Both the position numbers and the translations under genes were made by a program. Below the pieces are notes generated by a model that was not told the origin of the DNA, made no database searches, and worked only from the letters and a program-made list of their open reading frames with translations. A stretch of 61,810 bases of DNA, counting the filler, from Globobulimina sp. (lineage: Eukaryota): assembly GCA_003354225.1 (NCBI GenBank). It is 7 parts of 7 records of this genome, joined end to end, with 100 filler letters (N's around TTAATTAATTAA, not from the genome) between each part and the next. Parts side by side here need not be neighbours in the genome. Positions count along the whole stretch, not along the records: positions 8,861 to 17,618 come from PIVH01000062.1; 6 more parts are not named here. One strand, written 5' to 3'. Positions 4,944 to 53,115 of this stretch are shown here, in pieces (positions within the stretch are counted from its first letter, which is position 1; each line of letters starts with the position of its first letter).

Positions 4944-7407
4944 TAATCATTTTTTGGCAGTATGTTTTTCTCAAATTTATTCTATATCCATAACCATCCA
5001 ACTCTTTATCTTTTAGTTCCCATCCTTTCATTTTTAACTGTTCCTTTAATTTCCAATCTAAATCTTTCAATTTGACAAACATTTTCTCAGTTCTTTTATT
5101 TTTACTTTGCTTTCTTTTATTTATTTGATTCTCCGAAGAAGACGAATAATAATCAAAATAAACAAATTTCAATAGCATAAATTCTTTATTTCTTGTTTCA
5201 TTCAACCAGACCAAAAAGCGTTGAATATTATAATTATTAAATCTATACTTATTGAACAATGACAAGCCTTTCATATTTGGATAAATCCTGTCGATTTTAA
5301 AGAAATCAACGTTCCAAATATCGCCACCTGACATTATATCCTTTTCCTTATCATTCCGCAACATTAAACTCCTTAAACCCGGACTTATATCATCCAGAAT
5401 TACATGAAAATGATGGCTCGGTTTCAACATTATCTCGCTCATTTTTAGCAGAAACATTTCCTTACATTTTATCCCGTATTTCCTGTTTTCTTTTGTCGAT
5501 TTCAAAGCATTCTCGACTTTATTCAAATCATTCTCCATTTCATCCTCTCTGTACTCAATAGCTAATGTCAACAATTCGACATACACTTTCTCCAAAAACC
5601 TGTCCATTGAATAGATGCCTTCTAAAAACAACCGCATTGCAAAAAAATATAAACGGATTAAGTGAGCATTTTGTTTCTCAAAAACAGCAATATCGCTGTC
5701 CGGCATTATAATCGGTGTCTTGCTGAATATTTTCCTCACTCTCACATACATAAAACCAACTAAACGCTCAGACTCTTCTGGATAGTCACTGAGCTGCGAG
5801 GCGTCGAAGGCGTAACAAAGTGGCAACTGCGGATACTGCGAATTCATCTCAATGATCATTCCTTTGTCCGTTGCAAAGGTCGACGCCACGTGGTACGATG
5901 CGGTGGCACTAACAATTGAGAAACAAAAACAACATAACTTCCTATTTGCAAATTAATAGCAAATATGTATAATAGTAATATACCTCAATGGCCCCCATAA
6001 ACGTGACAAAATATTATGTCTTTGGATGATCATCAAAGGGTTGACGCCATGATAAAACCGCTTATAACCGATGGAAACAGAGAATTTCTTAATGGTCACA
6101 GTCAGACACTGCCTCCAATTCGAATACGATGACAACCTTCGTCTCATCGCTAATAATGTATCATCATCGTATTGGTAAACATAGTTCGTGATAATTCTGA
6201 AACATTTCTTTAATGCATGCTGCAGTTTATCAAAATCTGTATACAGTTTGATTGCGATGATCTCTTTCAGCGAAATAGTTTCGTTTTTCTCCCATTTCGC
6301 ATGCCTTATCTGCTCCAAATCTGAGGCATAGCCATGTTTCTCTTCGTTATGAGTCCGAATCGATTGCCCAATCCATGATCGCTTGATTTTTTTCGATTTC
6401 CGCAGCGTGTCATTCCAATCGTAGATAGTGATGATCTTAAATGGACAATGCAACACTTCATCCTTTATGTTGTCATACCTCGCTGTCACATTATACAAAT
6501 TCTTGACACCCTCCACAGATTTGATCCTCTGCCACACAAATTGTCCCATTTTCTTCTCCAATTTGATATACAACTCATTGCAAGTTTTGCTGTCACGAAC
6601 AATGCATTGCATTGTCAGTCTATCCTTGCCGCGAAATGTATTAATATCATCCTCGGCAATTTTATCATTCTCAATGTTTGCTACATTGTACGTGGCGATA
6701 TGTTTGCTTCTGATTCGAGTCATGATGGCGTATGATTTTAGCCTTAATTCCCATTCATTTTGTAATTGCAGTACCTCTCCGTCGCTGTGCACATTGAATG
6801 CATCTTTATATTCATCAGCAGATAGCACATCATCTGAACATATTGGATTCGCATATTTGAGTACACCGTGCAAAAAGTAAACATGTATTCTATCCAACTC
6901 GAGCTCCAATTCTTTCTCTGTTGAACATTCATCAGTGTTGCTCTTGTAATACAGCAGCAAATTTTCAACAGTCTTAGACTTATCTCGATGGTGTCTCTGA
7001 AAAGCAGGACATTGGTCGTTGCCGCAAACACGGTCAATACCGCACTTTCTAAGTATCATATTTTCAACATACGGAAATACGTTGTTTTGGGCGCTGTTGT
7101 TGTCTGTATGGAATCTTTGAATGTGCTGGAAATCAGCCAATATTGCCTCGTATTCGTATATTTTATAGGTGACAAAATGTGAAACAGGTTGTTTCATCCA
7201 ATACAGTGAGCAAATATAACTCTGATAACTGCACAGAATGATGATTAGTCTGCCAACACAGGGACAGAATTTGTAATCGTTGCAATCAAAGTTAACACAT
7301 TCTTCTTTAAGCCGTTGCTTGTGTTGTTGCAGCGCTATTGCGTCATTGTGGAGTATAGGAAATATTTTATCGAATTCTGCATCTTTTGTTTGGATTATAT
7401 CTGTCAT
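4918..7407 (-). CDS. ADP-ribosyltransferase-like (ART-fold) domain protein, 2 exons
   Basis: ORFs 5953-7584 and 4918-5889 join through GT-AG intron 5983-5909, giving KLYTD...FYHG...GPLSATASYHVASTFA.DKGMIIEM...SDYPEESERL. The start could be further upstream (7584). Confidence 0.65.
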
Positions 7408-8760: not shown

Positions 8761-8860
8761 NNNNNNNNNNNNNNNNNNNNNNNNNNNNNNNNNNNNNNNN
8801 NNNNTTAATTAATTAANNNNNNNNNNNNNNNNNNNNNNNNNNNNNNNNNNNNNNNNNNNN
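8761..8860. other. Artificial contig spacer
   Basis: N44-TTAATTAATTAA-N44 (stops in all six frames). Confidence 0.98.
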
Positions 8861-9145: not shown

Positions 9146-9921
9146 TTAGTTTTTTCTCCGTTTTGTTTGAGGTGGTGGATAAATATTAAATCTCCATGAA
9201 TTTCCCTCAAATGTTACGAATTTATAAGGTTTCCTTTTATTATTTCTATGTTTTCCAGATGCTAAGTTATATATTATTTATATTATATTTATATTATATT
9301 TATATTATATTTATATCTTATTTATATCGTATTTATATAATACCTTTTTTTGATTTCAAGTTTGGATGTCCTTTTTCAATCGATGCAGGTAATTGTGGTT
9401 TGGGTTCTATATATGAAGTGCAAGGATAATTCAGCGAATATGCGTAGATATTAACTGGTATGCACTAATTTGCGTTTATATGAACTTTTGATTTGTGTCG
9501 TTTTGATTGGTATCTGTAACATTGGCTTATTTTTAAAATAAATTAAATAACTTTTTAAAAGACTATCTTGCTGATTATACCATTTACTTAATATACGATT
9601 GAATTCAGTTAGAGCCGTATTCCCATTACATAATAAATTATGCAATTGTGGGGCTCTTTTAAGTAATTTACGCATTTCATAAGATTGATAAAAATGTTCT
9701 GGTTTACCACCGCCAATAAATAATTCTGAAACATATAATAATTTTTTTAAATAAGATAGTTTCCATAAATTGCAAGTGTTTAAATCTACAGCGACATCTT
9801 TACAAAAAATAGATTCTTTCAATTTTAAATTCAATGTTGATAATAAATATTCATTTTGATGTATACCAAAATTGATAATATCACTACCTGCAATATCTAG
9901 TGAAAGTCGACCTGTACTCAT
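9146..9921 (-). CDS. TGRxSLD-domain protein A (element accessory gene; frame break near 9455)
   Basis: N-terminus MSTGRLSLD. Downstream exons ~9454-9344 (..HPNLKSKK) and 9261-9146 flank intron 9343-9262, whose junctions match an intron of paralog B. The link between the 156-aa ORF and these exons needs an unusual intron or a frameshift. Confidence 0.6.
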
Positions 9922-10013
9922 GGTTAAATAAATTATGAAGTAAGTATTTAAAAAACTCTAAAGTCTGAATTGAAATCAAGAGCGTTAACTAAAAATATTA
10001 ATCCAATAAACTA

Positions 10014-11317
10014 TCATTTATCCTCATCTTCATCCAAACTATATCTTTTTGCATCATCATGAAATATATTATTTAAACATTCATCTAAACCTGAAACTGA
10101 CAAAGTTTCAAGTGTTGCCTCCTTCAAAATCAATCCCCATGTCGCTTTCATAAAATTCCGTTGCAAAGACGTATTTCTTGAATCCGTTCCCATAATCCGC
10201 ATCCGATCATGACGATGCCATGGCGCTGGCGGCCGCGCTGCTAAGTTATATATTATTTATATTAAATTTATATTTTAATTATATATTATTTATATGATAC
10301 TTATATAATACCTTTTTCTGATTCCAAGTTTCGAAATGATTTTTCAGTCCAATCAGCTGTATATATTTACATCACATTTATATACTCATTTAGATATATT
10401 TACATCACATTTATACACCATTTATATACCTCTAAATATTTTTGCATCAAAAAAATAGTCGACACTATTTATATATTATTTATATAATATTTATACATTA
10501 TATATAAAATATTTATAACATACATATTATTCGATATGTCATCATTTCCTTTCCTATTTATATATTAATTATATATCATTTATATAATATTTATATACTA
10601 TTTATGACATACTCATCAATCGGTGGCGAAAAATCAATACCATACCTGTTTATATGATATTTATATACTATTTATACACTATTTATATATTGTTTATAAA
10701 ATATATAGTGCATACGTGTCAAATCGTAGTGTTTTTAAATTTATGCCAGCAAAAATATCTTCTTTTTCTTTACGCTCTTTTTTAAACATACCAGCACGGA
10801 CACAGGCCTTTTCTTTTTCTTCTTCTTCTTGCGCTGTTTAAAAGCTATGATAGTGATGCGATTTTGCGCAAGCATATATATAAATTAATATACCATAACA
10901 CACGGATTTTGCGCAAGACACTGCACACGGATTATTCTGAATATAGATTTTATATATTTGTTTATGTAATATTTGATCAAGGCGCCAATTATCTGATATA
11001 TGCGCAAATTCTTTCGCAAATTCATCTTGGTTTTTATAAATTATTTCATACAATTCAAATGATCCCTCTTTTAACATTCGTAATGTAGAACTTTTATCAT
11101 ATGAAAAATGAATATCTTTTGTTAATTGATACATATATGCAAAATTCCATAAATCCGCTGTATAAAATTTAAATGCCACATCACACCCTGACAATAACTC
11201 AGATTGCTTATAGTTGTAATTTAATATTGATAATGTATACTCATTTTCGTCATGCAATATAAAATCAATAATCGTGCCGCCACCTTCGATATCTAACGAC
11301 AACCTTCCGGTGTTCAT
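10014..11317 (-). CDS. TGRxSLD-domain protein B, 7 exons, 303 aa
   Basis: Exons 11317-10894, 10833-10716, 10645-10613, 10553-10524, 10464-10430, 10356-10312 and 10240-10014. All introns are GT-AG and the frame stays open (912 nt). Confidence 0.75.
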
Positions 11318-11424
11318 GATTAAACTCTTTGACTGCTGACAGAGTGTGATGAAAATCAGAATTCTAAAAACCTCTTTAAATAAATTGTTTAAACACAAAA
11401 CAAAAAAAAAACAAAACTCACATT

Positions 11425-14400
11425 TTACTTATTTTTATTTTTATATGCACATCCCATCGAACTGCAATATTTCCATAATTCATTCAATTCAAATCGATCG
11501 TTAAAATAAGATTTAATTTGACTGAGTCTATTTTCATTAATAAAATGATATCTATACTTTTGTAAATAAACCCATAACGATACATTATGGGTATGTGTCC
11601 ACTTTTTATTTTGATTAAATTCTAAATTTTTCTCCAATATATCATCATAAACTTCATTTCTAAGTTCATCCAAATCCAAATCAATGATTGGTAAAAGTCT
11701 ATTTGTTCCATCCTTTGCTTTAAAAGTTCCCTCAAATAATTGCAAATTAAATGTGCCAGTAAATATTTTTTCTAACTCATTAAAAACATCAGGATACATC
11801 AAAGAATACGGCTCCCATTCAGGTTGTATTCTTTTTGACTTTTCTTTCCGTCCCTCCTCAAGCCAATATTTAAAACATTTATAATTTGCAGCAAATTCAA
11901 ATATTGCTCCATTTATATATGCCAATACTACTCCTTGTCGACCAAATTTCCATCGATATATATTTAAAAGATTATTGCGTGCCTCTAAACCCATAATTCC
12001 TAAAATAATTATATATTTATATATTAAAAAAAACTACAAACCAAAATATAGTATATAATTTGGTACCAATATTAGGAATTGCACGGTCACACAATCCACA
12101 ATTAAATAACATCATAAGATGGTTTGGCAATAATTCAATGTCTCGACGATTCCTGTATCCAAACGAATAATGATTATATACTGGATCTTGATATTTATTT
12201 TGTTTACAATCTTTTGGCTCGAATCTATTTATATATTATTTATATATTATTTATATGATAGTTATATACTATTTATATATTATTTATATATTATTTATAT
12301 AATAGTTATATACTATTTATATATTATTTATAACATACAAATAATCTGTCCATGTTCGCCAATGTGACTCCATTTCGCATTGGAATTGAACAGGAGATGA
12401 AAATGGCATTTTTAATAAAGATTTTATTTTATCACAATCACTATCTCTCATTTCCAAAATATGTTTCGCCCACCAAAGAGGCATACAAATAGGTGCAGTA
12501 TAACCCGGTATAACATCACATTGTATTTTACCATTGGGGTATTTTAAAGATCGTCTGTAATAAAGATCAAAATCATGCACGTAACAACCTTTGCCAAGGC
12601 CAAGCTTGACGCAATCAGCATTCCTCCCTTCTTTATATTTATCATATTTGATCGTATCAATATCATATCCAACGTCTTGCTTATATGCATTTTTTACATC
12701 ATCAAATTCAAATTTACCCATAAGAAATGCAAAATAATTTGGAATATCACAGGGCGCTAAATGAATTATTGCTTGTCTCATATTTACTTTCATTCTTTCT
12801 TTATCATCGTCTGTAATCTACAAAGATACATGCATTTATATACTATTTATATAGCATTTATAATACATCTATATAGCATTTATAATACCTTTTTAGTAAT
12901 ATTTTTATTTGACACTTCCCAGCATTGATGAAATGGGCGATCTGCCAATCTGGTTTCGTTTGTGTTTTTTACATATACACGGAAGGTATCAATATTATCA
13001 TCGCCGTATATATCCTCTCTGTCAAGCAAATATTGCGTCAAACCCATTTCATATTGTTTGCATGGATAATGTTTAACATGCGGTAAGTCATGGCGTCTGG
13101 TTTTTTCACAACGATCCCAAAAAGCTAATCTACTTTCTGCGGATATTCTGTAGTATTTAAGTGCGCGATATCGTCTCTTTGCAGTGATTAATAAACTTTC
13201 CCGATGAAAACCACACGCAGTTGACTATATAAACAATATGTAAATTATATATAAATACAATGTAAATATAATATAAATACTATGTAATTATACCACTGCC
13301 AACATTAATTTTACCCATGCCGTTAAATTATAATTCCATCTTCTTTTCCGGCCTGTTTTGGGATCACATTCAGGAAACAATATTGATTTCTTTGTTTTTT
13401 TATCATAATGTTCTTGTTCTAACCCGCCCATAACTAGTTTGCACACATTTTTGTTTACACCCAATCCATCCGTTCTTATTTGAAATCCTTTTTTTTCTTT
13501 TTCACATTTTTTCATATTTTCTTTGACAACACGCTTCATGACCGGAATAAAAGTACCATGCCCTTCACCTTTTGGTACTATTCCTTGATGTAATATAAAA
13601 TTGGGCCCTGTTGAAACTATTAAATATGAACATGGAATTGGTTGATCTGTCGATAAATCTGCACTCTCATCAAATGTTTCATTGTATTGCGATTCACCAA
13701 TCTCTTTGATATCATCCTGTTCATTTTCTTTTGTTTCATCTACATTTTTTTTTAATTCTTTCCATGGATTTCTTGCAGATAATATATGCGCATCGACTTT
13801 ACCATATATATTACGAAATGATTTCTCTGTCCAATCAACTAAAAAGATTTTGTAATCAATGCGCATTAAGGCATTTCTAATCAATTCTATTTATATAGTG
13901 TTTATATACCATTTACAAACTATTTATATACTAATTATAGATAAACATACGATTTGCTTTACGCAATATAAACTTTAACATCCATCGCTTAAAAAAATCA
14001 AAATGACCCCGGTTACAAATACTTTGCATAACTAAATGATCTAAATCGTGTTCGGGATAATATAATTCTTCTTTGTTTAATACAGTTTGAATTTCCCCCA
14101 CACGTTGGTTCATAAAATCAGTGACCCATTGAGACACTTTGGAATTTTGCGTTTTTAATGAATTTTTTAAAATCCATGATATCTATATATTGATTATATA
14201 TTATTTATATATTATTTATACGCTAGTTATATACTATTTATATAATATTTACATGTTATTTATATATTTTTATATGTTATTATTTATATATTATTTATAT
14301 ACTTATTTATATGATATTTATATATTATTTATATAATATTTACATATTATTTATATAATATTTACATATTATTTATATACATACCAATCGTCCAGTGATA

Positions 14401-14852
14401 AACATACCGCCAGTGCCAATACTAAATATTCTGCGTGTTTTGCCACCATCATATTCTACATACACCTTCGGTACACTAAGGACATCTTCATCTAATACGC
14501 GTATATTACGACAGAATTGTAGAGCAGGCGAGCATTTATTACTTCGTAGACATCGAATGCGTGATGACATAACTCGAATGTTACTGTTCAAACTAACAAC
14601 ATTATGATAAGCTCCTTTATTTAGACGTTCTTGAAAAGGACAATAATTTCCTGCAATTTCTTTACATTTCCGGGACCCGCAGAAACCTTTAATACTTGCA
14701 ATGTCACGGTCCATATATATTTTGCCTTTGTTAACATTTATATTATGAACATGTTGCAAAGTTGCATTCGTTGTTAGTAACAGCGCATTTAATCCATCTT
14801 GCACTGTTCTAGTCTGTTGATTAATCATCTTTGCGCTTTTTGAAAAACGCAT
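11425..14852 (-). CDS. DDE transposase (MULE/hAT-type CxxH signature), 7 exons, 946 aa
   Basis: Exons 14852-14385, 14182-13951, 13886-13294, 13224-12889, 12817-12339, 12224-12067 and 11999-11425 (2841 nt, open). Cys-rich N-terminus, then FDESAD, IRTDG 67 aa later, CGFHRESL and GIMGLEARNN. Confidence 0.72.
14183..14384. repeat. Longest intronic ~11-bp tandem array (consensus ATTTATATA[T/A/C]T)
   Basis: tattatttata-type units fill the 202-nt intron. Similar arrays occupy most introns between 9262 and 17443. Confidence 0.85.
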
Positions 14853-14938
14853 TGTAACCGGTGTAGAGTGATAAAGTGATTTAGACTGCTTTACACTTTT
14901 CAAAAAACACTTTACTTTGTAGTCGAATGACACAAACT

Positions 14939-17618
14939 ATGGCTACTGGAAGAGTCAGTCTCGACAGCATCACAGGCAACGCAGCAGAGTTCGATACGTT
15001 TGGCGAATATTGCTTGTTTAAATTGCGGATGATATTGCAACAAAATGAAGATTTTGCGGCAATCCCAATCCAAATGAATATTGGAAAAATTTGGAAATCT
15101 CGGTTTGTCATTAAATTAGCTGCGCATTTGCCAGAGCATACACGGCAAATAGCAATTGGTGGTGCGGCCTTAGATAAATCGTTAGACGGATATGAGCCGC
15201 AAAAAATTAAAAAATGTTGCCCCGTATTGTACGCTTTAATATATGACAAAGAGAACAAAGATATGCGACTAATATGCAATGAATTTGAAGAGACTATGAG
15301 TGAATGGCATGAGGAGATTAATGCATATAGAATGTTTTACATGCAACGACTTGATAAGACCTATAATATCACCAATAACAACACCAATAATAACCATAAT
15401 ATCAACAATAACAACATCAATAATAACAACACCATTGCAGGTATTGCGAATTTGCGTTATATTTATTGCGAATTTGCGTTATATTTATATATTGTTTATA
15501 TAGTATTTATATACATATTTATACCCTAGTTATATACTATTTATAACTTTATTTACTATATATAGAATTTATTCCATCCGCCACCGCAAATATTATTCTG
15601 CCACCCATTAGCAGCTTTATGGAGGCTCCCTTAACCCCACAACAAATGCCAAAGACCACTCCCATAACGATGATAAAAGATAAAAAAAAAGAAAAGGCTG
15701 AAAAAGAATTGGCAGAGAAAATAGAGAGAAAGGCAGCAATACAACGTTTAAAGAATTATTCTAAGTTTTTTAATTGGGCGGCCGGTATGTTTATGACATT
15801 AATACGTCCTCATTTGCTACCAGAGGAGGTTAGTTTGCTCATTGTGTATCGAGAGAATTGGTGGGTTATTAATAAGGACATCGTTGAAAATTGTGTTTTA
15901 GATTTAACTGCAGAGAAAAAATTAACAAATGTTAATAGTAAGGAAGCATTGTTATTTTTACACGTTAAGTTATATATAAATATATTATAAACAATATGTA
16001 AATATATAGTAAATGATATATAAATATATTATGAATATAATTTATAACTTATGTAATATTTACATATTATTTATATAATAGTTATATACTATTTATATAT
16101 TATTTATATAGAAAAAAGGTAAATTAAATATTATTAATGGACTTAAATTAAAATGCCATACTGATTACAGCTCCTTTAAATTCGGCAGTCCGTGGATTAA
16201 TGCTGAATCTTTCAATATAAATGGTCTTGGAAAGCATTTCGTCGGTGTCCCTAAAAACAGAGAGAATGATACGTGGCGTGAAGACCATCCAGATATTGCG
16301 GGTGTATTACGGTTATTTATATATATTTATATTATATTTATATATTATTTATATAATATTTACATGTTATTTATATATATATATATATATTTACATAGTT
16401 ATGCTGTTAGAAATGTTATTAATTATGCTGTTGATGAATATATGGAGCATGAAGTTATTGCGAAGTATGAGAAGGGAGTAATTGGATATAAGCGAAGAGT
16501 CGCTCGTGTCAATAAAAATTATGAAAAGAATATCATTAAATATGAAGGTAAAAGCAGAGGAGCGAAAAATGAACCAACCGTTAACGTACAATATACTCAA
16601 AGATTGGTCGACGAAAATGGACAAATAACCACAATGAAGATTGATGAACAATTAAAAGTATCAAAATTAGATCATCATTTGGATTTTGGCATATCTCTTA
16701 TTCCTGAATATGTTGGCGTTTTTCAGGATAACGCGCCAGTGCCTACGAAGCACCATTTGACTGAACAATATCTGAGCAAATTCATACTGTTTGGATATGT
16801 CCCCGGATTAAATTTACATCCGTCATATATCACTGACACATTAGAAGTCTTAGGACTTGTTGACATGACAAGTATGATATAAACACTATATAAATATCAT
16901 ATAAATATCATATAAATATTATATAAATAAGATCAAGATGATGATGTGGTTCAAAGAATGTATAAGTGGTCCCGGGAACCACCGCCACCGTCAAAAGATG
17001 AAAAAGAAAACGGTAAGTGTGTCATACCTTTATATAAATTACCTGCTTTGAATCAGCGTCATAAACTTTTATTAAAAAATCCATTACCCCGTAACATTAC
17101 AAAACCATTTTTATCGCGTGAAATACTTCTATCTAATTCAAAATATAAAGAAAAACGCGATAAAATTAGAATTAAGAAGGAAAAAAAGATGAAAAAGGCT
17201 GGAAACAGTAAAAGGGAAATGGATAGTGATGAATTGGACGATTTTGAAACTACGCTAACTGATTTTGTGCAAACTGCTGCTGAAAAGTATGGATATAAAC
17301 GAAACAACTCTCAACGAAATGATGATCCTTCACAATATGAAGAATCCCCAAAGCGCAAAAGTTATGATTTTATTTATACAATATTTATATTATATTTACA
17401 AATTATTTACATCACATTTATATACCATTTATATATTAATTAGGCAGGAATAAAGGAGATCCTGATATGATGGACGTTGACAGTGAGGAAGAAAAAAAAG
17501 AAAAAAAAAAAAAGAAAAAAAGTAAAACAGGAAAAAAAAGAAAAAAAAAAAAAGAAGGAAAAGAAGAAGGAAAAGGAAAAGGAAAAGAAAAAGACAAAGG
17601 AAGAGGAAAAGGAGAAGG
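14939..17618 (+). CDS. TGRxSLD-domain protein C, at least 6 exons, Lys-rich tail, 3'-truncated
   Basis: Exons 14939 (or 14927)-15440, 15566-15963, 16112-16311, 16399-16871, 16932-17360 and 17444 to the contig end. All introns are GT-AG and the phases are consistent. N-terminus MATGRVSLD. Confidence 0.75.
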
Positions 17619-17718
17619 NNNNNNNNNNNNNNNNNNNNNNNNNNNNNNNNNNNNNNNNNNNNTTAATTAATTAANNNNNNNNNNNNNNNNNNNNNNNNNN
17701 NNNNNNNNNNNNNNNNNN
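17619..17718. other. Artificial contig spacer
   Basis: N44-TTAATTAATTAA-N44. Confidence 0.98.
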
Positions 17719-18213
17719 GATGATATTGGTAATGGATTATATGATAAATATGGAGCAACGGGTTGGTCCAAAGCGGATCATAACGGTCAAAATAAAAATG
17801 GAACAAAACATAATATTGTTGAATTCCAAAATATATTCCCCAGTCATTCAAAAAAAAGCTCAACACATATTTTAAAATCGTTTACCATTAAAAAGACTGC
17901 ATTCTTGTTAAGGTACTACCAATATGATTATATCTTATTTAATTTATCATTGCCAGAATGGATTTGCCAAGTTATATCTAATGAATATGAACAAATGACC
18001 ATACTTATGCCACAACAAATTCATCGGAAAAATGCGATTAGATTGAAAAAAACAAACAATTTGCGAGTGTTGAGGACATCTGTTGCAGTCTACTCAGAGC
18101 TTCTTCAATTATATGTTACATTGAAAATATTTCCATCATATCTTCAACCAACATGTATGCCATTATTAACACATTGTGTTCAATACGGTGAATGTCCTCA
18201 AACGTTTAAGTAA
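17719..18213 (+). CDS. C-terminal fragment of a probable carbohydrate sulfotransferase (Sulfotransfer_2-like)
   Basis: Frame is open from the contig start: DDIGNGLYDKYGATGW...HSKKSS...LRYYQYDYILFNLSLPEWIC, a typical Y..D[YF]..F...P ending. Confidence 0.5.
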   Translation, partial: DDIGNGLYDKYGATGWSKADHNGQNKNGTKHNIVEFQNIFPSHSKKSSTHILKSFTIKKTAFLLRYYQYDYILFNLSLPEWICQVISNEYEQMTILMPQQIHRKNAIRLKKTNNLRVLRTSVAVYSELLQLYVTLKIFPSYLQPTCMPLLTHCVQYGECPQTFK

Positions 18214-26474: not shown

Positions 26475-26574
26475 NNNNNNNNNNNNNNNNNNNNNNNNNN
26501 NNNNNNNNNNNNNNNNNNTTAATTAATTAANNNNNNNNNNNNNNNNNNNNNNNNNNNNNNNNNNNNNNNNNNNN
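26475..26574. other. Artificial contig spacer
   Basis: N44-TTAATTAATTAA-N44. Confidence 0.98.
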
Positions 26575-26698
26575 AGGCAGAGAAGATCGTCATCAAATAG
26601 TAAGTAAAATTGAGAGTGATAAATTAGAAAATTTAGTAGAAAATTTAGTACTAGAAAGATTCAAATTAATTAAAATTAGAAAATATAAATACGCTAGA

Positions 26699-29600
26699 AT
26701 GCACACTGCTAGCGGTAGAAAAGGATACTCTTCTACTCGTATAAGGAAGGATAAACGTAGACCAAGATCTAAGTTAATCCAAAAATTCGAGAAAAGTGCC
26801 ATGGAAGAAGAAGAGAAAACTAGAAATTTTATGAAAGCTGGTTATCTAGATAATCAGTCGGAAAGTGCCGACTCGGATCTAGATACAGCTGACGATATAA
26901 CCGATGATAATATTATCATTAGAGACTTATTATATGATATTATAAATGAAATAGATGATAAAACAGTTATTAAATTAGATTTTGAAAATATGTATGACAA
27001 TACTAATATGAATGGTCGGTATATACATCATAATGATGGGGTGTTCCGACCTTTGGGATCGGAGACCTCAAAATTAATTGATGCACAAGGAGACCATACT
27101 ATTATACCTGCTAAACATACCCGTATTAGTATCGTAGAAGATAAAATTATATTAAATGATTACGATAATATGGTTGTCCGATATAGAGGATGGGGGACTA
27201 TATTATATGATGATCATGTTCATATGGATGAGGTTATTCGACCCTTAAGATCGGAAGACCATTGGCATTACGATAATTTCAAGATTATCGATAATAAATA
27301 CGTAATAAAAACTTGTACGTACCATATGGAAGGAAATTATGAATATGAGTATGGAGAAAATTGGTATAATGTAGAAAATTCTATATTCATAACTGATAAA
27401 ACTAAAAATATAAATTACAAAAATTTATACAATATTTTATTTGATGAATCAAAATCAGTTATAAGTATAGAAAATTATAATATGTATAAAACCCGGTATA
27501 CACAAACTCCGGACCGTACGAGAAACTCTCCGGAACATAGAATTAATATACGCAGTTTGAATAACAAACTATGTAATTATTCCATATTATGTGTGGAGAG
27601 TGAAACTAAAGATGATAATATAAGATTAAATATCATCTGGGATAAATTAGCTTGGATACAACTCCAAATTATGGAAACTTCTAAAACAGTAGAAGGAAAA
27701 CGCATCCATAAAGTTATAAATAATGTACTTCGAGACTTGAACGAAAACTTTACTAATTTAGATGATAATTCTATAGAAGATATACGACGATTTTATAACT
27801 ATGCCGAGCAAAGATTGACTAAATTAGATGAATTTTGTACAAAAGCATATACTAATAAATGTACCCCTATTTCAGGTATGGCAGAACAAAAGCCCATAGA
27901 CGATCAAACAACATCTTCAACTATAACTGAAACAGCAAGCGGGTCACTCGACTCCTCTGCTTTAGCAGGAGGTTTGTCTGGCCTTAGCACTGCTGAGAAA
28001 TCCTCCGATAAAACTTCAGAAAATATAGAAAATGTAGAAATGGTAGAAAATAAGGATGCTTGGAAAACCTCTGCATCTACTAGAGCCATTCCGGATGACC
28101 CGGATAAATATGAAGAATTTGTATCACAATACAAATACCCTGCAAAACTAGAAAAATTTATAAATAAATTATACAACGAAAAGGATTATGTATTTAGAGA
28201 TAGTGAAGAAATTGAACATACAATAGAAATCGGTACAGACCCTATACCTAGAAAGGCTATGTCCGATGCAGAAGTAGAATTATATACAATTAGAAATGAA
28301 TTTATATACAATATGGCATCAGGAATGGGATATGAAGATACTGAATGCCCAGAACATAGAGAATTAAACTTAGAAATTATTCGAAAACTTCGTTTTTATA
28401 TAAACGATACAGAAAGTAAGCCAGACATACCTGTTCTAGGGGTACATCTGGCCGAAATATTAAAATGTATAGAGAAGAAAAATTTGTACGATATTGCAAG
28501 AAGTATAGATGTCGGCGAATCATTACAGAAAATTATGAAAGAAATCACTATTATGATGTTATCTACAAATAAATGGATTTTCACAATTAACAAAAATGTG
28601 AGAATCCTTATTCAAAATGATAAATATCTTACAGAACAGGTTAGAAAATTAAATAAAATAGCAGTAAAAAATGAAGAAAAGAACAAAGAATTAGAACAAT
28701 ATAAAACGGCTAAAAATCAAGAAATTCAAAAGTTGAATAACGATATAACTGCTATGAAAAACGAAATGATAGAAATTAGAAAATTGTATACCACCGTCCC
28801 TCCTCCAGTTATACAACCAGATATAACGGTGGAAGTAATGCCGGAAGCAAGAGATAAAATGGACTTATTAATTGGAGGAACATATGATTGCCCTTTCAAT
28901 TTGGATAAAACCACAGACATTAAACTATTAACTAAAATAAATGAAGATGGTGAAGAAAGATTCGTAACATACCATTCTTTCAACCATTACTTATATATGC
29001 AAACGGCGATCACTTGTCTTGATTGGGACATGGTTCGCAGATTGTCAAAAATTAAAAATAAAATATGTTTCGAATTAATACTACAAAAATGTCCTATTGA
29101 ACGATACCAAGAAAATATAACAACGTTCACAGAATCATGGATTGCCAATTGTTATTATAACTTTATGGATTATGTAATAAAAAGAAATTTAACCTTGGCT
29201 ATGATTTGCGGTAAAATAGGACATGAAAAATATAATACTAAATTCCTTATAAAAGATGAATTATTAGGTATCGGATATAACATAAGCCAAGAAAATATAT
29301 ACTTATATAAATATGAAAACATTACAGCAAAAAATAATTTATTAGGAAAATCTATTATATATTTATGCAACAAATATATTGCAACATATGTAGAACTTGA
29401 TGCAGCAGATAAAAAATTAGCAGATCACGAGTTTGCTACAAATGCAGCAACTTGGATGATTACTAATAAAAATGAAGATAAAGCATTAATAAATGCACGT
29501 ATAAAATGTTTACAAAATATAAAATGGGAAAAGAAATATCCAATAAAAGGGAATATTCAGATAATTAGAAATGAAAGATTCTCCTTCGCTGACACTCAAT

Positions 29601-31390
29601 TCAGTCGAGGATTTAACCTAGGTGACGCACCTTGGAATTCCTTTCTATCTCGAGGAGAACTCAACGAAGCAAGAAAATTAGCTGCAGAACAATATGATAA
29701 AAAAACCCCTGAATATCAAGAAGAATTAAAGAAAACGATAAGAGAAATGTCAAGTAGAAAAATGGAAGAAACTAAAATCAGACTGGAAACTGCTTCAGCT
29801 GAAAATATATTCGAGAAATTTGCTAGTGAAGATCTGGATACGTCATCAGAAATTTTAGACAAAAATCCACATCCAGAATCAAATATAAAATTAGAACCTG
29901 AAGAAAAAAAGAAACAATCTGCCGGATCTGTCCAAGGTGATCCCGACCGGCAAACCCCTATATCATCTGAAGGAAGTATAAAAAATATAGAAAGTGCAGA
30001 TGATGATAGTTTCAAAAAACCCAATGAGTGGCAATTACAACGTGGTAGAAAACATAGAAGTCCTGGACGCGGGAGAGGATATGGTCGTGGATATGGCGGA
30101 AGAGGATACAACAGAGGACGTCAAAGTAGACCATATTCTTCAACCCATATATCTAGAGACCCTTCATCAGAGGGAGAATATAAACAACCATATATAGCTG
30201 GTAAACCAACAGAATTCTCGGCTGCTGGAATATTTGGTTTACCCAATATAGCAAAAAATATACCAAAAAGAAAATCGTCTCAATCTAGGGATAGAACGGG
30301 CTCCCAAGGAAGCCAAGATCCAAATATTAAACAACAACGTTTATCTATAAAGTCGGGCATAGAAATTATAGACGAAGCACATAAACGTCTACCTGATAAT
30401 AAATTACCGCCCATATCTCAAACTTATAACTTAGAAAATTTATTGGATGCAAATATATTTTTGGGACTCATTAATGACCCCTACGAGGGTAAAATCCATG
30501 CATATCCAGCAGGAAAAATTTTCCTGCAACCTATAGAAATGAAACCAAAGAGAATTCCATTAAATTTGTCGCCTCTAGCTGAAAGACACGGACAAATATT
30601 AGATCCTACATTAATTGATAGTACAAAATCATTCCGAGTTCCTAATAACTTGAATCTCTCCATTTTGGGAGACTCTACGACTTATGGATTGGAGGATTTT
30701 ATATTAGCCACAACTAAAGAATATGACGTTAAAAATTTTGTACATTATAACGGTATGAGATCATCCGGAAGTGCCTTTTTGAGCCTTCGTTTGAGATCTA
30801 TGATGACATTAATGCCAGCATTGGTTTCCAATGATGAGCATGTTATTGTTATAAAAGGAATCCTTGATTGTGCTGACATTGTCAATAATCAAGTTTACCA
30901 ATCTCAAGTTTTTGAGGATTGGAAACATTATTGCGGTCAACTAGTCAAAGATATTAGTAAATTATGCCATAATATACATAGTATAAATCCAAAAGCATTA
31001 ATGTTGATATCATTAACAGCTCCGATCTTGGGTCACTCTAATTATATGAGAAGTGAAGAAGATCCTGGATTTTTGATATTAATAAATGAAATAGAAAAAT
31101 ATTTAACTTTAGAAATTAATTTATTAGCAGAAAAATCTGCACTGCCGATTAGATACATTGCTCTAACAGCAGCTATAAATCATGAAGTACATAGATTAAA
31201 GAAAGAAGCTGAAAGACAGAGTAATTCACCAGTAGAAATTACCGATTCAGTAGAAAAATTTATAACTGGTATAAAATTAACTAGAAATGGCCAAAAAATA
31301 TTGGCTAATGAAATAATCAGAGAATCAATAGTTGGATGGATTAAATTCTCAAGTCCCGACTCAAATTTATTGCCTTCGGGAAACTTATAA
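26699..31390 (+). CDS. LINE ORF1: coiled coil, NADAR-like domain, RG-rich tract, SGNH-hydrolase-like domain
   Basis: Coiled coil ~28630-28790. GGTYDCPF...YHSFNHYLYMQTA...D...DELLGIG...NNLLGK at ~28867-29375. RGRGYGRGYGGRG at ~30070. ILGDS...G..DC...TGIKLTRNGQKILA at ~30658-31320. Confidence 0.8.
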   Translation: MHTASGRKGYSSTRIRKDKRRPRSKLIQKFEKSAMEEEEKTRNFMKAGYLDNQSESADSDLDTADDITDDNIIIRDLLYDIINEIDDKTVIKLDFENMYDNTNMNGRYIHHNDGVFRPLGSETSKLIDAQGDHTIIPAKHTRISIVEDKIILNDYDNMVVRYRGWGTILYDDHVHMDEVIRPLRSEDHWHYDNFKIIDNKYVIKTCTYHMEGNYEYEYGENWYNVENSIFITDKTKNINYKNLYNILFDESKSVISIENYNMYKTRYTQTPDRTRNSPEHRINIRSLNNKLCNYSILCVESETKDDNIRLNIIWDKLAWIQLQIMETSKTVEGKRIHKVINNVLRDLNENFTNLDDNSIEDIRRFYNYAEQRLTKLDEFCTKAYTNKCTPISGMAEQKPIDDQTTSSTITETASGSLDSSALAGGLSGLSTAEKSSDKTSENIENVEMVENKDAWKTSASTRAIPDDPDKYEEFVSQYKYPAKLEKFINKLYNEKDYVFRDSEEIEHTIEIGTDPIPRKAMSDAEVELYTIRNEFIYNMASGMGYEDTECPEHRELNLEIIRKLRFYINDTESKPDIPVLGVHLAEILKCIEKKNLYDIARSIDVGESLQKIMKEITIMMLSTNKWIFTINKNVRILIQNDKYLTEQVRKLNKIAVKNEEKNKELEQYKTAKNQEIQKLNNDITAMKNEMIEIRKLYTTVPPPVIQPDITVEVMPEARDKMDLLIGGTYDCPFNLDKTTDIKLLTKINEDGEERFVTYHSFNHYLYMQTAITCLDWDMVRRLSKIKNKICFELILQKCPIERYQENITTFTESWIANCYYNFMDYVIKRNLTLAMICGKIGHEKYNTKFLIKDELLGIGYNISQENIYLYKYENITAKNNLLGKSIIYLCNKYIATYVELDAADKKLADHEFATNAATWMITNKNEDKALINARIKCLQNIKWEKKYPIKGNIQIIRNERFSFADTQFSRGFNLGDAPWNSFLSRGELNEARKLAAEQYDKKTPEYQEELKKTIREMSSRKMEETKIRLETASAENIFEKFASEDLDTSSEILDKNPHPESNIKLEPEEKKKQSAGSVQGDPDRQTPISSEGSIKNIESADDDSFKKPNEWQLQRGRKHRSPGRGRGYGRGYGGRGYNRGRQSRPYSSTHISRDPSSEGEYKQPYIAGKPTEFSAAGIFGLPNIAKNIPKRKSSQSRDRTGSQGSQDPNIKQQRLSIKSGIEIIDEAHKRLPDNKLPPISQTYNLENLLDANIFLGLINDPYEGKIHAYPAGKIFLQPIEMKPKRIPLNLSPLAERHGQILDPTLIDSTKSFRVPNNLNLSILGDSTTYGLEDFILATTKEYDVKNFVHYNGMRSSGSAFLSLRLRSMMTLMPALVSNDEHVIVIKGILDCADIVNNQVYQSQVFEDWKHYCGQLVKDISKLCHNIHSINPKALMLISLTAPILGHSNYMRSEEDPGFLILINEIEKYLTLEINLLAEKSALPIRYIALTAAINHEVHRLKKEAERQSNSPVEITDSVEKFITGIKLTRNGQKILANEIIRESIVGWIKFSSPDSNLLPSGNL

Positions 31391-34300
31391 AGGTCAGTTC
31401 AATTTTTACCACAACTAATCCCATAATTAACACAAACTTTTCAGATTCAAATATTGATGTGTATAAAGATGTGTATAAAGACCAACCTATAAAAGATAAA
31501 GATGTAGAAAATAAAGATAAAGACAATGAAATAATATTAATTGATCAAACAATTGATATATTATATAACAATGTGTGTTCTATGAACACCAAATTTGAAT
31601 TAATAAATGATAACATAAAACTTATAAAACCAGATGTTATTTGTTGTGTTGAAACAAAATATAAAACTGTCTTAGACTTGCATAAATTTGATGAATATGA
31701 GAGTTTTCATAAAATGCAGATTGGCAAACCTACAGGCGGTATTAGCATTTGGGCTAAATCTGAAACTAGACCAAGCAGATTAGATATAGATGACATCGAT
31801 GATGAAATATCTATGAATTATTTATGGATATTATGTCAAAATAAAGCAATGACTGCTATATGTGCTGTATACCTTAGAAATCAAAGTGATCCAGACGCTA
31901 GAGAAACAAATACAACAATATGCCAAAGATTAATGCAACACATTAACTGGTGTAGATTACATAATTATAAAGTCTTTGTTATTGGAGACTTTAATGGACA
32001 CATCGGCAATGATGAATGGGGAATAAACGAAAACCATGACGATATAAATAATAATGGATTCATAATAAGAAATTTTATTAGAGACTCAGATTTAAAATTA
32101 TTGAATTCAGACTTAGAAACTGAAGGTAAATGGACATGGGGTTATAATAAAAATAATACAAAGCCCCAAATTCTCGATATAGCATTGAGAAGTCCAGATA
32201 TTACAAATATTAAAACGATTATTGACGAAAAAAATAATATATATGGTAATATTGGTAATAAAGATCATTGCTTTATACATAGTAAAATAAGTATTAAAGC
32301 TAAAAATAAAATATTACAAACTAAACTAATTAAAGATAAATGGAAAATAAACGATGAAACTAACTGGCAACAATATCAAGAAGAAATTAGAATTAAAATT
32401 ACTGAAATGGACAGTAATGATAAAATAACAGAAAATTCAATATTTAAAATAATAGAAGAAGCGGGAGTCAAAAGTATTGGATATAAAAATAAAAATATTA
32501 AGAAAAAGAAAGAATCAAAGAAGATTAGACAATTAAATTTAGAAATTAGTAATTATAGGAAAGAACTACGTAAAAATCCTGAATTTAAAGGAAATATATT
32601 AAATGAATTATTTAAGAAAATACGAGAAAGACGACAAATTAGACAGAGAGCTGAAATGGCTAGAATAGAAAATGCCCATAATAAATGGATTAATAATCCA
32701 AAAAGGAAATTTCATCAACTATATGATACTATGAAAAATCTAAAAAGAGGTATAAGTGAAAAGGTGACACTAATAGACGAGGATAATATACCAATAATTG
32801 GAGAAGAAAAGATAAATTCACACATAACAGATTTCTGGGAAAGTATTTTCACATTAGGAATATGGCCCGAATCGAATGATGAAATGAAGAGATTAGGAAT
32901 GAGTAATATTATAAATGGACCAGATAAATTAGACCTAGAAAATGAAATTTCAGTGAAAGAAATTAAAGATGCTATACATAAACTTAAAAATAATACATCA
33001 GCTGGAACTACTAATATCCCTCCAGAATTTATTAAAAATTGGCCTGAAGAAATGACACATTTATGTCATACACTTTTTAATAAATGGTTTGATTCCAGTT
33101 ATTTTCCAGAAATAGGGAAAACTCAGGAAGTAACATTATTACATAAAAAAGGATCAAAAAGTAAAATTAAAAATTATAGAACTTTATGCTTGGGATGTAA
33201 TTTATGTAAATTATATCTACTAATATTAACTGGAAGATTAGAAAAAATAACAGAAAAGAAAAATATATTAGGATATATACAACACGGATTTAGAGCAAAT
33301 AAAAGAATTGAAGACTGTATTTTAGTTATCCAACATACAGTACAGAGAGCTAATAAATTGAGAAGATCCGAATCCCCTATTGTAGCTCTACTAGATATTT
33401 GTAAAGCATATGATAGAGTGTGGAGGAAAGGTTTATGGAAAAAATTAAAAGATTATGGATTCCCAGATAAATTGATAAATGCGATAAAAAGTAGCTACCT
33501 GGATCCGGGTGCTACAATAACATTTCAAGATACTAAAACTAATAGACTAAAAATGCCAGTAGGATTAAGACAAGGATGTACGATGTCACCTATATTATGG
33601 GCATTATTCATAGCTGATTTAGGTAAAGAAATAGAAATGTGTCACCTTGGTATTGAAATAGGAACTACAGAAAATAAACAAAACATATCTGGATTATTTT
33701 TTGCTGATGACATGTTATTATTCGCAAAAAACGAAAATAACATGAAAAAATTATTAAACATTGTAGGAAATTACGCTAATAAATGGAAAATAGAATTTTC
33801 AGGCCCTAAAAGCCTAATTATACCATTAAAAAGACCGGTAGAGAAGGAACGAAACTGGTCTTTAGGACATAAATATATCTCGGAAGGAGAAAAGAAGGAA
33901 ATATACATACAGGAAGAAAAAGAAGCTAAATACTTAGGAATTACTCTATGCCAAAATAGCATGGATATAATGAGGAAACATAAATTAGATTTAGTAGAAA
34001 GAACTAGAAAAGAAACATACAGATGCTACAAACCCGCTACAGTAACATCTAGACCGATATTATATGGAACTAAAATATGGCAAACATATGTTATACCAAA
34101 AATATTACATGGTATAGCAGCAATTCCATTTTCAATAGAAACCTTTAGATGTATAGAAACTCAACAAAGAGAATATATAAGAACGATTGCCAGATTACCT
34201 AGAGGATGCAATAATATGGTACTATATGGAGAAACAGGTTTAATTCCCATGAAAATGGAAGCTGAAAAACGAACCATTAACTACCTTGCTCACATACAAA

Positions 34301-34971
34301 AATTAAATTTAGATAATATAGTAAAAACTGTATTATTAGAACAATCAGAGATATATAACAACAAGGATACAAGCCAAATATGGCTTACTCATGCCATAAA
34401 TTGCTGTAGAAAATATAATATCGATTATACAAATATACCAAAAAAGGATATAATTAAAGATATTATAAAGGAGGCGTGGATAACAGAATATAACACGACA
34501 CTAAATGAATCCGTATCATTATCAACTTTTTATGCAGAAAAAATTAGACCCAAAATTAATTATAAATTAAACCTACAAACAGGAGGAGACTTTTGGCTGA
34601 AAGCTAGAAGTGGATGTTTAACATTAAATTACAAAACAAACCAACCCTGCTCGAGATGTGATGAAAATGCATTAGAAACAATTAACCATTTATTATGGGA
34701 ATGTCCGAGTAACATATTAACAGAAACGTATGAAAATCATATACAAAATCTTTGGGGATTACTCCCACCCAATATAAACGGACATATAAAACCAGAATAT
34801 AGAACATGTAACGATAATGAAAGATATGGTTACTTAATGTTAAGTACAGATTATATATTTAATGACAAGGTAAATGGCCAAATCATAAATATAGTGGGTA
34901 CTATTATTAAAGAACTATATAAAATTAGACCTGAAACGTTACAATATACTATTATGAAAAATAGAAATTAA
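31345..34971 (+). CDS. LINE ORF2: apurinic-like endonuclease, reverse transcriptase and C-terminal CCHC finger
   Basis: YNNV, CVET, GDFNGH, LDIAL, DHC (APE). NYRTL, QHGFR, LDICKAYDRV, GLRQGCTMSP, FADD, KYLG (RT). CSRC..ETINHLLWEC. Frame is open from 31345 with no ATG before the APE motif. Confidence 0.95.
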   Translation: MLKSRLKFIAFGKLIKVSSIFTTTNPIINTNFSDSNIDVYKDVYKDQPIKDKDVENKDKDNEIILIDQTIDILYNNVCSMNTKFELINDNIKLIKPDVICCVETKYKTVLDLHKFDEYESFHKMQIGKPTGGISIWAKSETRPSRLDIDDIDDEISMNYLWILCQNKAMTAICAVYLRNQSDPDARETNTTICQRLMQHINWCRLHNYKVFVIGDFNGHIGNDEWGINENHDDINNNGFIIRNFIRDSDLKLLNSDLETEGKWTWGYNKNNTKPQILDIALRSPDITNIKTIIDEKNNIYGNIGNKDHCFIHSKISIKAKNKILQTKLIKDKWKINDETNWQQYQEEIRIKITEMDSNDKITENSIFKIIEEAGVKSIGYKNKNIKKKKESKKIRQLNLEISNYRKELRKNPEFKGNILNELFKKIRERRQIRQRAEMARIENAHNKWINNPKRKFHQLYDTMKNLKRGISEKVTLIDEDNIPIIGEEKINSHITDFWESIFTLGIWPESNDEMKRLGMSNIINGPDKLDLENEISVKEIKDAIHKLKNNTSAGTTNIPPEFIKNWPEEMTHLCHTLFNKWFDSSYFPEIGKTQEVTLLHKKGSKSKIKNYRTLCLGCNLCKLYLLILTGRLEKITEKKNILGYIQHGFRANKRIEDCILVIQHTVQRANKLRRSESPIVALLDICKAYDRVWRKGLWKKLKDYGFPDKLINAIKSSYLDPGATITFQDTKTNRLKMPVGLRQGCTMSPILWALFIADLGKEIEMCHLGIEIGTTENKQNISGLFFADDMLLFAKNENNMKKLLNIVGNYANKWKIEFSGPKSLIIPLKRPVEKERNWSLGHKYISEGEKKEIYIQEEKEAKYLGITLCQNSMDIMRKHKLDLVERTRKETYRCYKPATVTSRPILYGTKIWQTYVIPKILHGIAAIPFSIETFRCIETQQREYIRTIARLPRGCNNMVLYGETGLIPMKMEAEKRTINYLAHIQKLNLDNIVKTVLLEQSEIYNNKDTSQIWLTHAINCCRKYNIDYTNIPKKDIIKDIIKEAWITEYNTTLNESVSLSTFYAEKIRPKINYKLNLQTGGDFWLKARSGCLTLNYKTNQPCSRCDENALETINHLLWECPSNILTETYENHIQNLWGLLPPNINGHIKPEYRTCNDNERYGYLMLSTDYIFNDKVNGQIINIVGTIIKELYKIRPETLQYTIMKNRN

Positions 34972-35329: not shown

Positions 35330-35429
35330 NNNNNNNNNNNNNNNNNNNNNNNNNNNNNNNNNNNNNNNNNNNNTTAATTAATTAANNNNNNNNNNNNNNN
35401 NNNNNNNNNNNNNNNNNNNNNNNNNNNNN
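35330..35429. other. Artificial contig spacer
   Basis: N44-TTAATTAATTAA-N44. Confidence 0.98.
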
Positions 35430-38530: not shown

Positions 38531-38630
38531 TTATATGAAATATTTACATCCAAGCTTGACGGGATGGTATTCTTGCAAAAGATGTTGAAAAGTTTAATAA
38601 AAACTTTCAAGTACTTGTCCGAAAGCGGTA

Positions 38631-44183: not shown

Positions 44184-44283
44184 NNNNNNNNNNNNNNNNN
44201 NNNNNNNNNNNNNNNNNNNNNNNNNNNTTAATTAATTAANNNNNNNNNNNNNNNNNNNNNNNNNNNNNNNNNNNNNNNNNNNN
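44184..44283. other. Artificial contig spacer
   Basis: N44-TTAATTAATTAA-N44. Confidence 0.98.
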
Positions 44284-53015: not shown

Positions 53016-53115
53016 NNNNNNNNNNNNNNNNNNNNNNNNNNNNNNNNNNNNNNNNNNNNTTAATTAATTAANNNNNNNNNNNNNNNNNNNNNNNNNNNNN
53101 NNNNNNNNNNNNNNN
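53016..53115. other. Artificial contig spacer
   Basis: N44-TTAATTAATTAA-N44. Confidence 0.98.

Follow-up and report, generated by a model that had tools for sequence, protein, structure and literature searches.

A TGR-domain protein family in a conserved four-gene unit of Globobulimina sp. with its own intron arrays

Three genes on a contig of Globobulimina sp. (assembly GCA_003354225.1) encode proteins that begin with nearly the same nine residues and end in different tails, which raises the question of what these proteins are and what they might do beside the larger gene that they flank. An earlier note on this DNA had proposed three paralogs with an unrecognised shared domain, grouped around a transposase and possibly encoded by a transposon as accessory factors. 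The window, that is, the whole stretch of 61,810 nt analysed here, consists of seven whole contigs in descending order of size (8,760 to 8,695 nt), joined by 100-nt linkers made up of N44, the six-frame stop linker TTAATTAATTAA and N44 (joints at 8761-8860, 17619-17718, 26475-26574, 35330-35429, 44184-44283 and 53016-53115). The block of four genes, here called A, B, X and C, lies wholly within one contig (8861-17618, PIVH01000062.1), and everything beyond 17618 belongs to an unrelated contig; since features cannot be read across contig joints, the open reading frame (ORF) at 17671-18213 does not belong to gene C. All exon structures are predictions read from the sequence alone. The shared domain, named the TGR domain after its first residues, comprises ~130 aa at the N-terminus of A, B and C and is encoded by the following exons (E-values refer to the family hidden Markov model, HMM).

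9523..9921, minus strand: gene A exon 1, TGR domain (ORF 9921-9451, 156 aa; family HMM E 1.5e-53)
10928..11317, minus strand: gene B exon 1, TGR domain (ORF 10838-11317, 159 aa, extending into intron 1; family HMM E 1.2e-41)
14939..15440, plus strand: gene C exon 1, TGR domain to ~15358 and then an Asn-rich linker (ORF 14927-15529; family HMM E 1.8e-48)

The N-termini reported previously, MSTGRLSLD (9921, minus strand), MNTGRLSLD (11317, minus strand) and MATGRVSLD (14939, plus strand), are all present in the sequence, and the motifs described further downstream (E-Y-x-L, W and E-F-x6-W) were recovered in a three-way alignment with 23 invariant columns, including E24, Y25, L27, W53, L93, E106, F107 and W114. 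BLASTP comparisons yielded 35% identity over 140 aa for A and B (E 3e-15) and 24% over 136 aa for A and C (E 5e-11), and C is thereby aligned with A; the B-C match (27% over 67 aa, E 0.007) is marginal taken alone. An HMM of seven family members matched all six domain exons of the two loci described below with E-values of 1e-41 to 1e-53, and no other ORF scored better than E 1 among 1374 ORFs of at least 25 aa from the window and the second locus. Likewise, a profile built from the three copies found no fourth TGR domain among 1197 window ORFs (next best E 0.15). The first nine residues, a near-invariant M-x-T-G-R-(L/V)-S-L-D, are the best-conserved part of the domain, which stands at the very N-terminus in 7/7 members and also contains a conserved (R/K)K(L/I)KK patch. 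The codons underlying the N-terminal motif vary synonymously among A, B and C, and therefore conservation acts on the protein. Pairwise and profile statistics thus both support the paralogy that the earlier note had proposed to examine by alignment and HMM, and by this evidence A, B and C are three old paralogs with a common N-terminal domain.

Searches for a known counterpart of the domain were negative throughout. No Pfam family matched A or B, and C gave a sub-threshold match to TACC_C alone (E 0.057, 13.6 bits compared to a cut-off of 29.9); a profile search of PDB sequences with the TGR domain reached a best E of 0.6. AlphaFold2 (AF2) modelling of domain A from a 7-sequence alignment produced an all-alpha structure of eight helices, the last of which is long (residues 101-130), with a mean pLDDT of 74 and a pTM of 0.68. 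This model had no match in the PDB with Foldseek at E<=0.001 (best E 1.5), none at Z>=5 among 48,161 chains with VIA-align (best Z 4.8) and none at E<=0.001 in BFVD (best E 1.2), results that do not exclude a known fold for the domain. A DTW-domain identity offered by the atlas search (best score 0.83, recognition 1851) was rejected as noise because the domain model is all-alpha. The string TGRLSLD was not found in the literature searched. A complex prediction of the A and B domains, made without controls, scored 0.00 and gave no verdict.

In an exhaustive HMMER search all 1.84 billion protein representatives were read with the TGR profile. Five proteins, none of them from plants, were found at E<=0.001, of which four are real relatives: P0001 (3e-31), P0002 (2e-21), P0003 (6e-13) and P0004 (2e-9). 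The fifth, P0005, is a repeat protein matched in five short stretches and was treated as spurious. The absence of a known domain, first stated from inspection, was thereby borne out by the Pfam, PDB-sequence, Foldseek, VIA, BFVD and HMMER searches, the structure-prediction check suggested earlier gave an all-helical model without a PDB fold match at E<=0.001, and no known host family was matched. As judged by these searches, the TGR domain is a new, previously undescribed helical family without detectable relatives outside these contigs. A lineage-restricted family is the best explanation of this distribution, and orphan families are common in protist genomes.

The relatives are themselves informative. 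P0001 to P0003 are encoded on a single contig of 10,143 nt (L001), and P0004 on a contig of 495 nt. L001 is collinear with the window contig along its whole length, carrying C', X', B', the B mini-exon, A' and the last exon of A, with the order and orientation A'-B'-X'-C' being the same as in the window. DNA identity in the X region amounts to 69.9% over 3,024 nt, introns included. A and A' (P0001) share 51% identity (E 4e-40), B and B' (P0002) 34%, grouping with support of 93/93, and C and C' (P0003) 35% (E 5e-20). P0004 resembles C: by BLAST, each of C, C' and P0004 has its best matches in the other two, although a clade of the three is unsupported (40/6). Because A pairs with A' and B with B', the triplication took place before the unit was duplicated, and all three types were retained thereafter. 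Since L001 carries the whole block collinearly, the trio and X form one conserved four-gene unit, which by these comparisons is present in at least two diverged old copies with ~70% DNA identity. The co-occurrence of the domain with the central gene, which the earlier note had asked for, was found in 2/2 examinable loci. Word-based protein searches with the domain alignment returned no relative among 209 candidates, a weak result because the domain search missed P0001, later found by exhaustive HMMER. The remaining parts of the block are as follows.

9146..9261, minus strand: gene A last exon, predicted, basic C-terminus ending in a KRRK-type stretch (GT..AG, phase-1 junctions)
~9344-9400, minus strand: gene A candidate mini-exon just upstream of the last exon, a diverged counterpart of the B mini-exon
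10014..10256, minus strand: gene B candidate last exon, acidic tail ending in DEDEDK (ORF; acceptor ...AACTTAG, the same as in gene A)
10322..10366, minus strand: gene B mini-exon, 15 codons, ADWTEKSFRN, duplicating the beginning of X exon 3, kept at L001 8670-8714
11425..14852, minus strand: gene X, central gene of the block, seven exons (exon ORFs), ~950 codons, possible DDE transposase
~15566-15965, 16112-16310, 16399-16882, 16931-17361 and 17435 to the contig end (17618), plus strand: gene C downstream exons, Lys/Glu-rich (ORF segments)

Genes A, B and X are located on one strand, and C faces X head-to-head, the two ATGs being 86 nt apart. The start of A lies ~90 nt past the stop of B, and that of B ~108 nt past the stop of X; a stretch of 40 nt in the X-B gap is conserved in L001. 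The introns, as read from the sequence, are canonical GT...AG introns, often starting with GTATGT, with consistent phases. The C-terminal parts differ as stated earlier, being short and basic in A, acidic and unconserved in B, and long and Lys/Glu-rich in C. The last exon of A is conserved (tblastx 9232-9146 against L001 9897-9983, 76% identity over 29 codons), as are the downstream exons of C (E 2.6e-10, 2.5e-20, 1.7e-30 and 1.6e-16), at least five in number and running off the contig, for which no Pfam match above cut-off was obtained. The last exon of B is not conserved in L001 (best E 0.35), and its derivation from X exon 7 was rejected (E 0.35-0.75, not significant). The B mini-exon matches X exon 3 (13848-13807) with 71% identity (tblastx/tblastn, E 5e-4) and X' exon 3 with E 8e-5.

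Nei-Gojobori estimates between the window copy and L001 gave dN (nonsynonymous divergence) of 0.35 and dS (synonymous divergence) of 0.53 for domain A and 0.55 and 0.96 for domain B; for domain C dS is saturated. With dN/dS of ~0.66 (domain A) and ~0.57 (domain B), the domains evolve faster than X, yet their frames stay open.

Several smaller features of the two copies were also observed. The stretch copied in the B mini-exon is the one with the candidate first catalytic Asp of X (13807-13848; L001 3574-3615). B and B' are strongly divergent downstream of the domain. An Asn-rich run at 15354-15434, the end of C exon 1, is a coding microsatellite, and a CACAAC-type coding run (His/Thr-rich by frame) occurs in A' at L001 9797-9873, just upstream of the conserved last exon. 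Between X' and B', L001 6073-6680 contains a truncated second TGR start (MSTGRVA...) together with recent partial duplicates from X', one of exon 4 (6330-6419, 90% identity) and one of the end of exon 7 (6498-6668, 89%). This local rearrangement has no counterpart in the window's copy.

The second distinguishing property of the unit is found in its non-coding parts, in which two motifs recur.

9267..17434, no strand assigned: 11-bp-period arrays of TATTTATATAN in nearly every intron (Tandem Repeats Finder)
9267-9342, 10466-10605, 12225-12332, 13887-13939, 14179-14379, 15480-15561, 16314-16393, 16873-16929 and 17362-17434: examples of these arrays
15442..15488, plus strand: TGCG motif, (A)TGCGA(A/T)TTTGCG, present twice in tandem where C intron 1 begins
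~10853-10868 and ~10898-10913, plus strand: TGCG motif in the region of B intron 1, one full and one partial copy
~9459-9474, plus strand: TGCG motif, partial, after the A domain
L001 2058 and 2082 (C'), 7278 and 7785 (B'), with a variant in A': TGCG motif in the second copy

Nearly all introns of L001 likewise consist of 11-bp-period arrays. The 8-mer core TATTTATA/TATAAATA occurs 69 times in the 8.76 kb of the block's contig and 98 times in the 10.1 kb of L001, compared to 24 times in the 52.4 kb of the six other contigs, corresponding to 7.9, 9.7 and 0.46 copies per kb, respectively, and, for the block's contig, to a ~17-fold enrichment over the six. All 69 copies fall outside the approximate exon set (none in 6,382 exon bp), and at least one is present in 14 of the 15 inter-exon gaps. 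Counts of the 10-mer TATTTATATA are 37+5 for the block's contig, compared to 0-1 for every other contig of the window, and no such array is present in a short intron of contig 1. On the DNA, 58/69 cores point the same way in the window copy, regardless of gene strand, the corresponding counts in L001 being 57 vs 41, and array orientation is the same in corresponding C and X introns of both copies. The TGCG motif approximates ATGCGATTTTGCG, in which TGCG occurs twice at a distance of 8 nt, and in both loci it stands near the start of the intron after each TGR exon, at most a few tens of bases in. All of its copies have the same DNA orientation though A and B are transcribed opposite to C, which argues for a role at the DNA level over one at the RNA level. 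No description of such intron arrays appears among the papers listed on foraminiferan and rhizarian genomes and introns. The remark that the intron arrays would fit VANC-type motifs thus holds in that they are short, AT-rich, confined to the unit's non-coding parts and ~17-fold enriched.

Introns of B' in L001 (7303-7580 and 8766-8969) contain tandem units of 149 bp and 104 bp, and these repeats embed both the 11-bp array and a GCGCA(C)AAAATCGCA motif.

What X encodes bears directly on the nature of the unit. All seven exons align to X' at 52-77% amino-acid identity, and with dN 0.29, dS 1.05 and dN/dS ~0.27 (Nei-Gojobori) the gene is clearly constrained, as expected under purifying selection. 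The exons of X and X' were scanned one at a time and not spliced, so that a split domain could be missed. In these single-exon scans no match to MULE/Transposase_mut was obtained for any X or X' exon, nor to PF21787, PF21788, PF12017 or THAP in Pfam, nor to the solved P-element transposase among PDB sequences. A language-model feature search of the atlas with X exon 3 gave a lead only: 21/30 matches among the named clusters were to TNP-like_RNaseH_N (PF21787), with a score of 0.91. In addition, X and X' share, in this order, candidate residues D, D, C-x2-H and E in the contexts FL(V/A)DWTEK, RTDG, ACGFH and QCEMESH, as assigned by eye. The accessible part of the description of the P superfamily gives it the signature D, D, [C/D](2)H, E and a D-D distance of 70-73 aa (PMC8230255); the signature comes with an inserted domain, which in P binds GTP. 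The order of the X candidates recalls this signature of P-element/THAP9 proteins, unlike the spacing, which is longer, with ~122 aa from D to D (PMC8230255, same part). Exon 1 of X contains a conserved cluster of five Cys, by eye without C2CH spacing, and a THAP zinc finger was not matched by Pfam in exon 1 of X or X'. A tblastn match of X exon 3 to the C-terminal half of the A' domain (E 7e-4) was rejected as a sign of homology because the 7-member family HMM matches no X exon at E<20. We estimate that X is about as likely as not to be a DDE transposase or a derivative of one. Of the earlier placement of the family around the transposase, the linkage to X stands, whereas the transposase itself is not established, no X or X' exon having a Pfam or PDB match; the sole lead points to P-element/THAP9 and not to the Mutator type of the analogies then drawn. 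We know of no accessory genes carried by P elements.

The reading that we prefer, tentatively and with rather less than even confidence, assigns A, B and C an accessory role in a transposon-like or domesticated unit, with the TGR domain as their shared docking module. On this view the unit would be a transposon-like element that may be old or domesticated; its enzyme would be X, possibly a DDE transposase of the P-element/hAT type, and the three TGR proteins would act as accessory factors of X. As a common docking module, the domain would bring three different tails, the short basic one of A, the acidic one of B and the long Lys/Glu-rich one of C, to one partner, most plausibly X. The unit-specific 11-bp intron arrays might serve as cis marks of the unit, perhaps in connection with the proteins. 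Docking is favoured because the domain is N-terminal, its start is the best-conserved part, its charge is unconserved, it is followed by three different tails, and the set has been kept together with X. Across the seven members the isoelectric point (pI) of the domain ranges from 4.95 to 9.86, with 4/7 being acidic (pI ~5), so that net charge is not conserved; this range argues against a generic DNA-binding surface and fits protein docking better. MURB of MuDR and the Myb-like protein of PIF/Harbinger are element-encoded, non-catalytic and poorly conserved proteins that act with the transposase. If the preferred reading holds, the TGR proteins would resemble these second ORFs as non-catalytic companions of a transposase; they differ in having no sequence or domain relation to them and in being three paralogs with one N-terminal domain and different tails.

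A number of observations weigh against a transposon-like unit. The known copies are two full ones and one fragment with ~70% DNA identity, and no ends, terminal repeats or target duplications are visible in either copy; the ends are not visible because the unit fills both contigs, homology running to the ends of both. No Pfam family was detected in the exons of X and X', even with the cut-off relaxed to E<=10, PDB-sequence searches run with individual X exons and with X/X' profiles stayed at E 0.06 or above, and word-based searches, a weak test here as well, found no relative of X exon 3 among 36 candidates, nor of X/X' exon 3 among 8000 longer proteins scored. The AF2 model of X exon 3 (2-sequence alignment, pLDDT 36.7) is unusable, and the atlas lead, with a recognition of 2188 (below the mark of 2300) and 161-167 shared features (below 170), lies in a range that shuffled proteins sometimes reach. 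Array specificity was judged against the six other contigs of this genome and L001 only. In codon usage the block agrees with host-type genes of other contigs (r 0.77-0.86) as closely as these agree with one another, and codon usage gives no hint of an origin of the block in a different organism than the other window contigs. With many GT-AG introns at conserved positions in addition to this matching codon usage, the block therefore resembles a resident host cluster. The earlier proposal of a transposon-encoded accessory family consequently survives in part: the linkage to X and the array analogy remain, and transposon status is left in doubt by two or three old copies without visible ends.

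Ranked nearly equal to the preferred reading, and likewise somewhat short of an even chance, is a segmental duplication of an ordinary, lineage-specific cluster of host genes, in which X would be a host enzyme or scaffold and the TGR proteins its regulators or partners; the arrays, as part of the same explanation, would be locally inherited AT-rich microsatellites without function. The introns at positions conserved between both copies, the host-like codon usage, the purifying selection on X, the mere two to three copies at ~70% identity and the failure to detect a transposase family in the X/X' exon searches all fit such a cluster, as does a gene density similar to that on other contigs. It accounts less well for the observation that none of the four genes has relatives outside these contigs in the searches run, for the atlas lead of X exon 3 to a transposase RNase H domain, for an array 10-mer that occurs 0-1 times per other contig in arrays whose orientation is kept between the copies, and for the fragmentary recent X' copies in L001.

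An accessory role in a transposon-like unit has its closest counterpart in the plant VANDAL elements. For VANDAL21/VANC21 the accessible part of the report describes a motif that is rare elsewhere, dense, in one orientation and present as tandem repeats in introns of the element's own genes (PMC5735166). As far as this part of the report goes, the Globobulimina unit is like the Mutator-like VANDALs of Arabidopsis in carrying a putative accessory gene beside the gene of the presumed main enzyme, in having a short motif densely and tandemly repeated in its own introns and non-coding parts, rare elsewhere and largely in one orientation, and in its fast-evolving putative accessory proteins (PMC5735166). 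It is unlike the VANDAL families described there in that the motif core is identical in both copies (PMC5735166). Further differences are the central gene, in which exon-by-exon scans showed no Mutator signature, the three paralogs as opposed to one, and the lack of a sequence relation to VANC, the exhaustive HMMER search having returned relatives from L001 and the 495-nt contig only.

Direct recognition of DNA in the manner of VANC is an unlikely alternative, in which the TGR proteins would recognise the TATATAAATA arrays and/or the TGCG motif in their own unit and thereby counteract silencing or mark the unit for X. The dense, non-coding, unit-specific arrays with their predominant orientation (58/69) resemble those of VANDAL21/VANC21 in the part of the report cited (PMC5735166), and the conserved (R/K)K(L/I)KK patch and the fast evolution of the domains would also be consistent with it. 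About 10 of the top 50 VIA rows for the domain model were winged-helix DNA-binding domains that continue into a long helix (PadR-like, LysR-type N-domains, Sso10a), to which model residues ~47-135, short helices and then one long helix, bear a weak likeness. However, their Z of 3.6-4.0 lies within the tool's stated noise range, far below the level given for helical proteins, and the TGR model has neither a beta wing nor sequence similarity to these domains. Moreover, 4/7 domains are acidic with a pI ~5, the orientation bias in L001 is weak (57 vs 41), and no co-evolving specificity is apparent, the two copies having diverged while sharing one array core. In its fullest form, drawn by analogy, this idea describes a protist DNA element that is a convergent counterpart of the plant VANDALs, with a divergent P/hAT-type transposase and three TGR accessory proteins that read their own 11-bp arrays and TGCG motif, so that the element marks itself for expression or for its own enzyme; we regard this as improbable.

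A further alternative, that the reading frames are fortuitous or are decaying as pseudogenes or remnants of a dead element and yield no functional protein, might be suggested by the unconserved B tail and the fairly high dN/dS of the domains (~0.6-0.7). It is very improbable given six domain exons and seven exons of both X copies that remain open after ~30% DNA divergence, an N-terminal motif kept through synonymous changes, a last exon of A that is 76% identical between the copies and an AF2 domain model that is confident for a 7-sequence alignment.

To our knowledge, accessory proteins together with cis motifs have been worked out in detail for very few eukaryotic DNA transposons, essentially the plant VANDALs and MuDR. 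If the unit is transposon-derived, it would provide a second, independent case of an accessory-protein/cis-motif system, outside plants, and one that could be tested, as the two diverged copies offer a natural comparison and two sharply defined non-coding motifs occur together with a candidate enzyme. If it is a host cluster, it would represent a clean multi-gene unit kept intact through duplication, with introns consisting almost wholly of one 11-bp repeat, and would bear on the filling and maintenance of introns in AT-rich protists. Under either reading the TGR domain adds a new family to the databases, and the main interest lies in a conserved four-gene unit with its own non-coding repeat code.

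The other contigs of the window contain genes of different kinds. Two long ORFs of the LINE (long interspersed nuclear element) type, encoding endonuclease and reverse transcriptase, were found at 31345-34971 and 48516-52862, the second of which also encodes RNase H; each is preceded by a long ORF without a Pfam family (26531-31390 and 45926-48061, respectively). A gene with a pleckstrin homology (PH) domain at 36746-38530 has a GC content at third codon positions (GC3) of 0.63, compared to 0.24 for an ankyrin gene at 38601-44051 on the same contig, and its codon usage is anti-correlated with that of all other genes examined (r -0.35 to -0.23).

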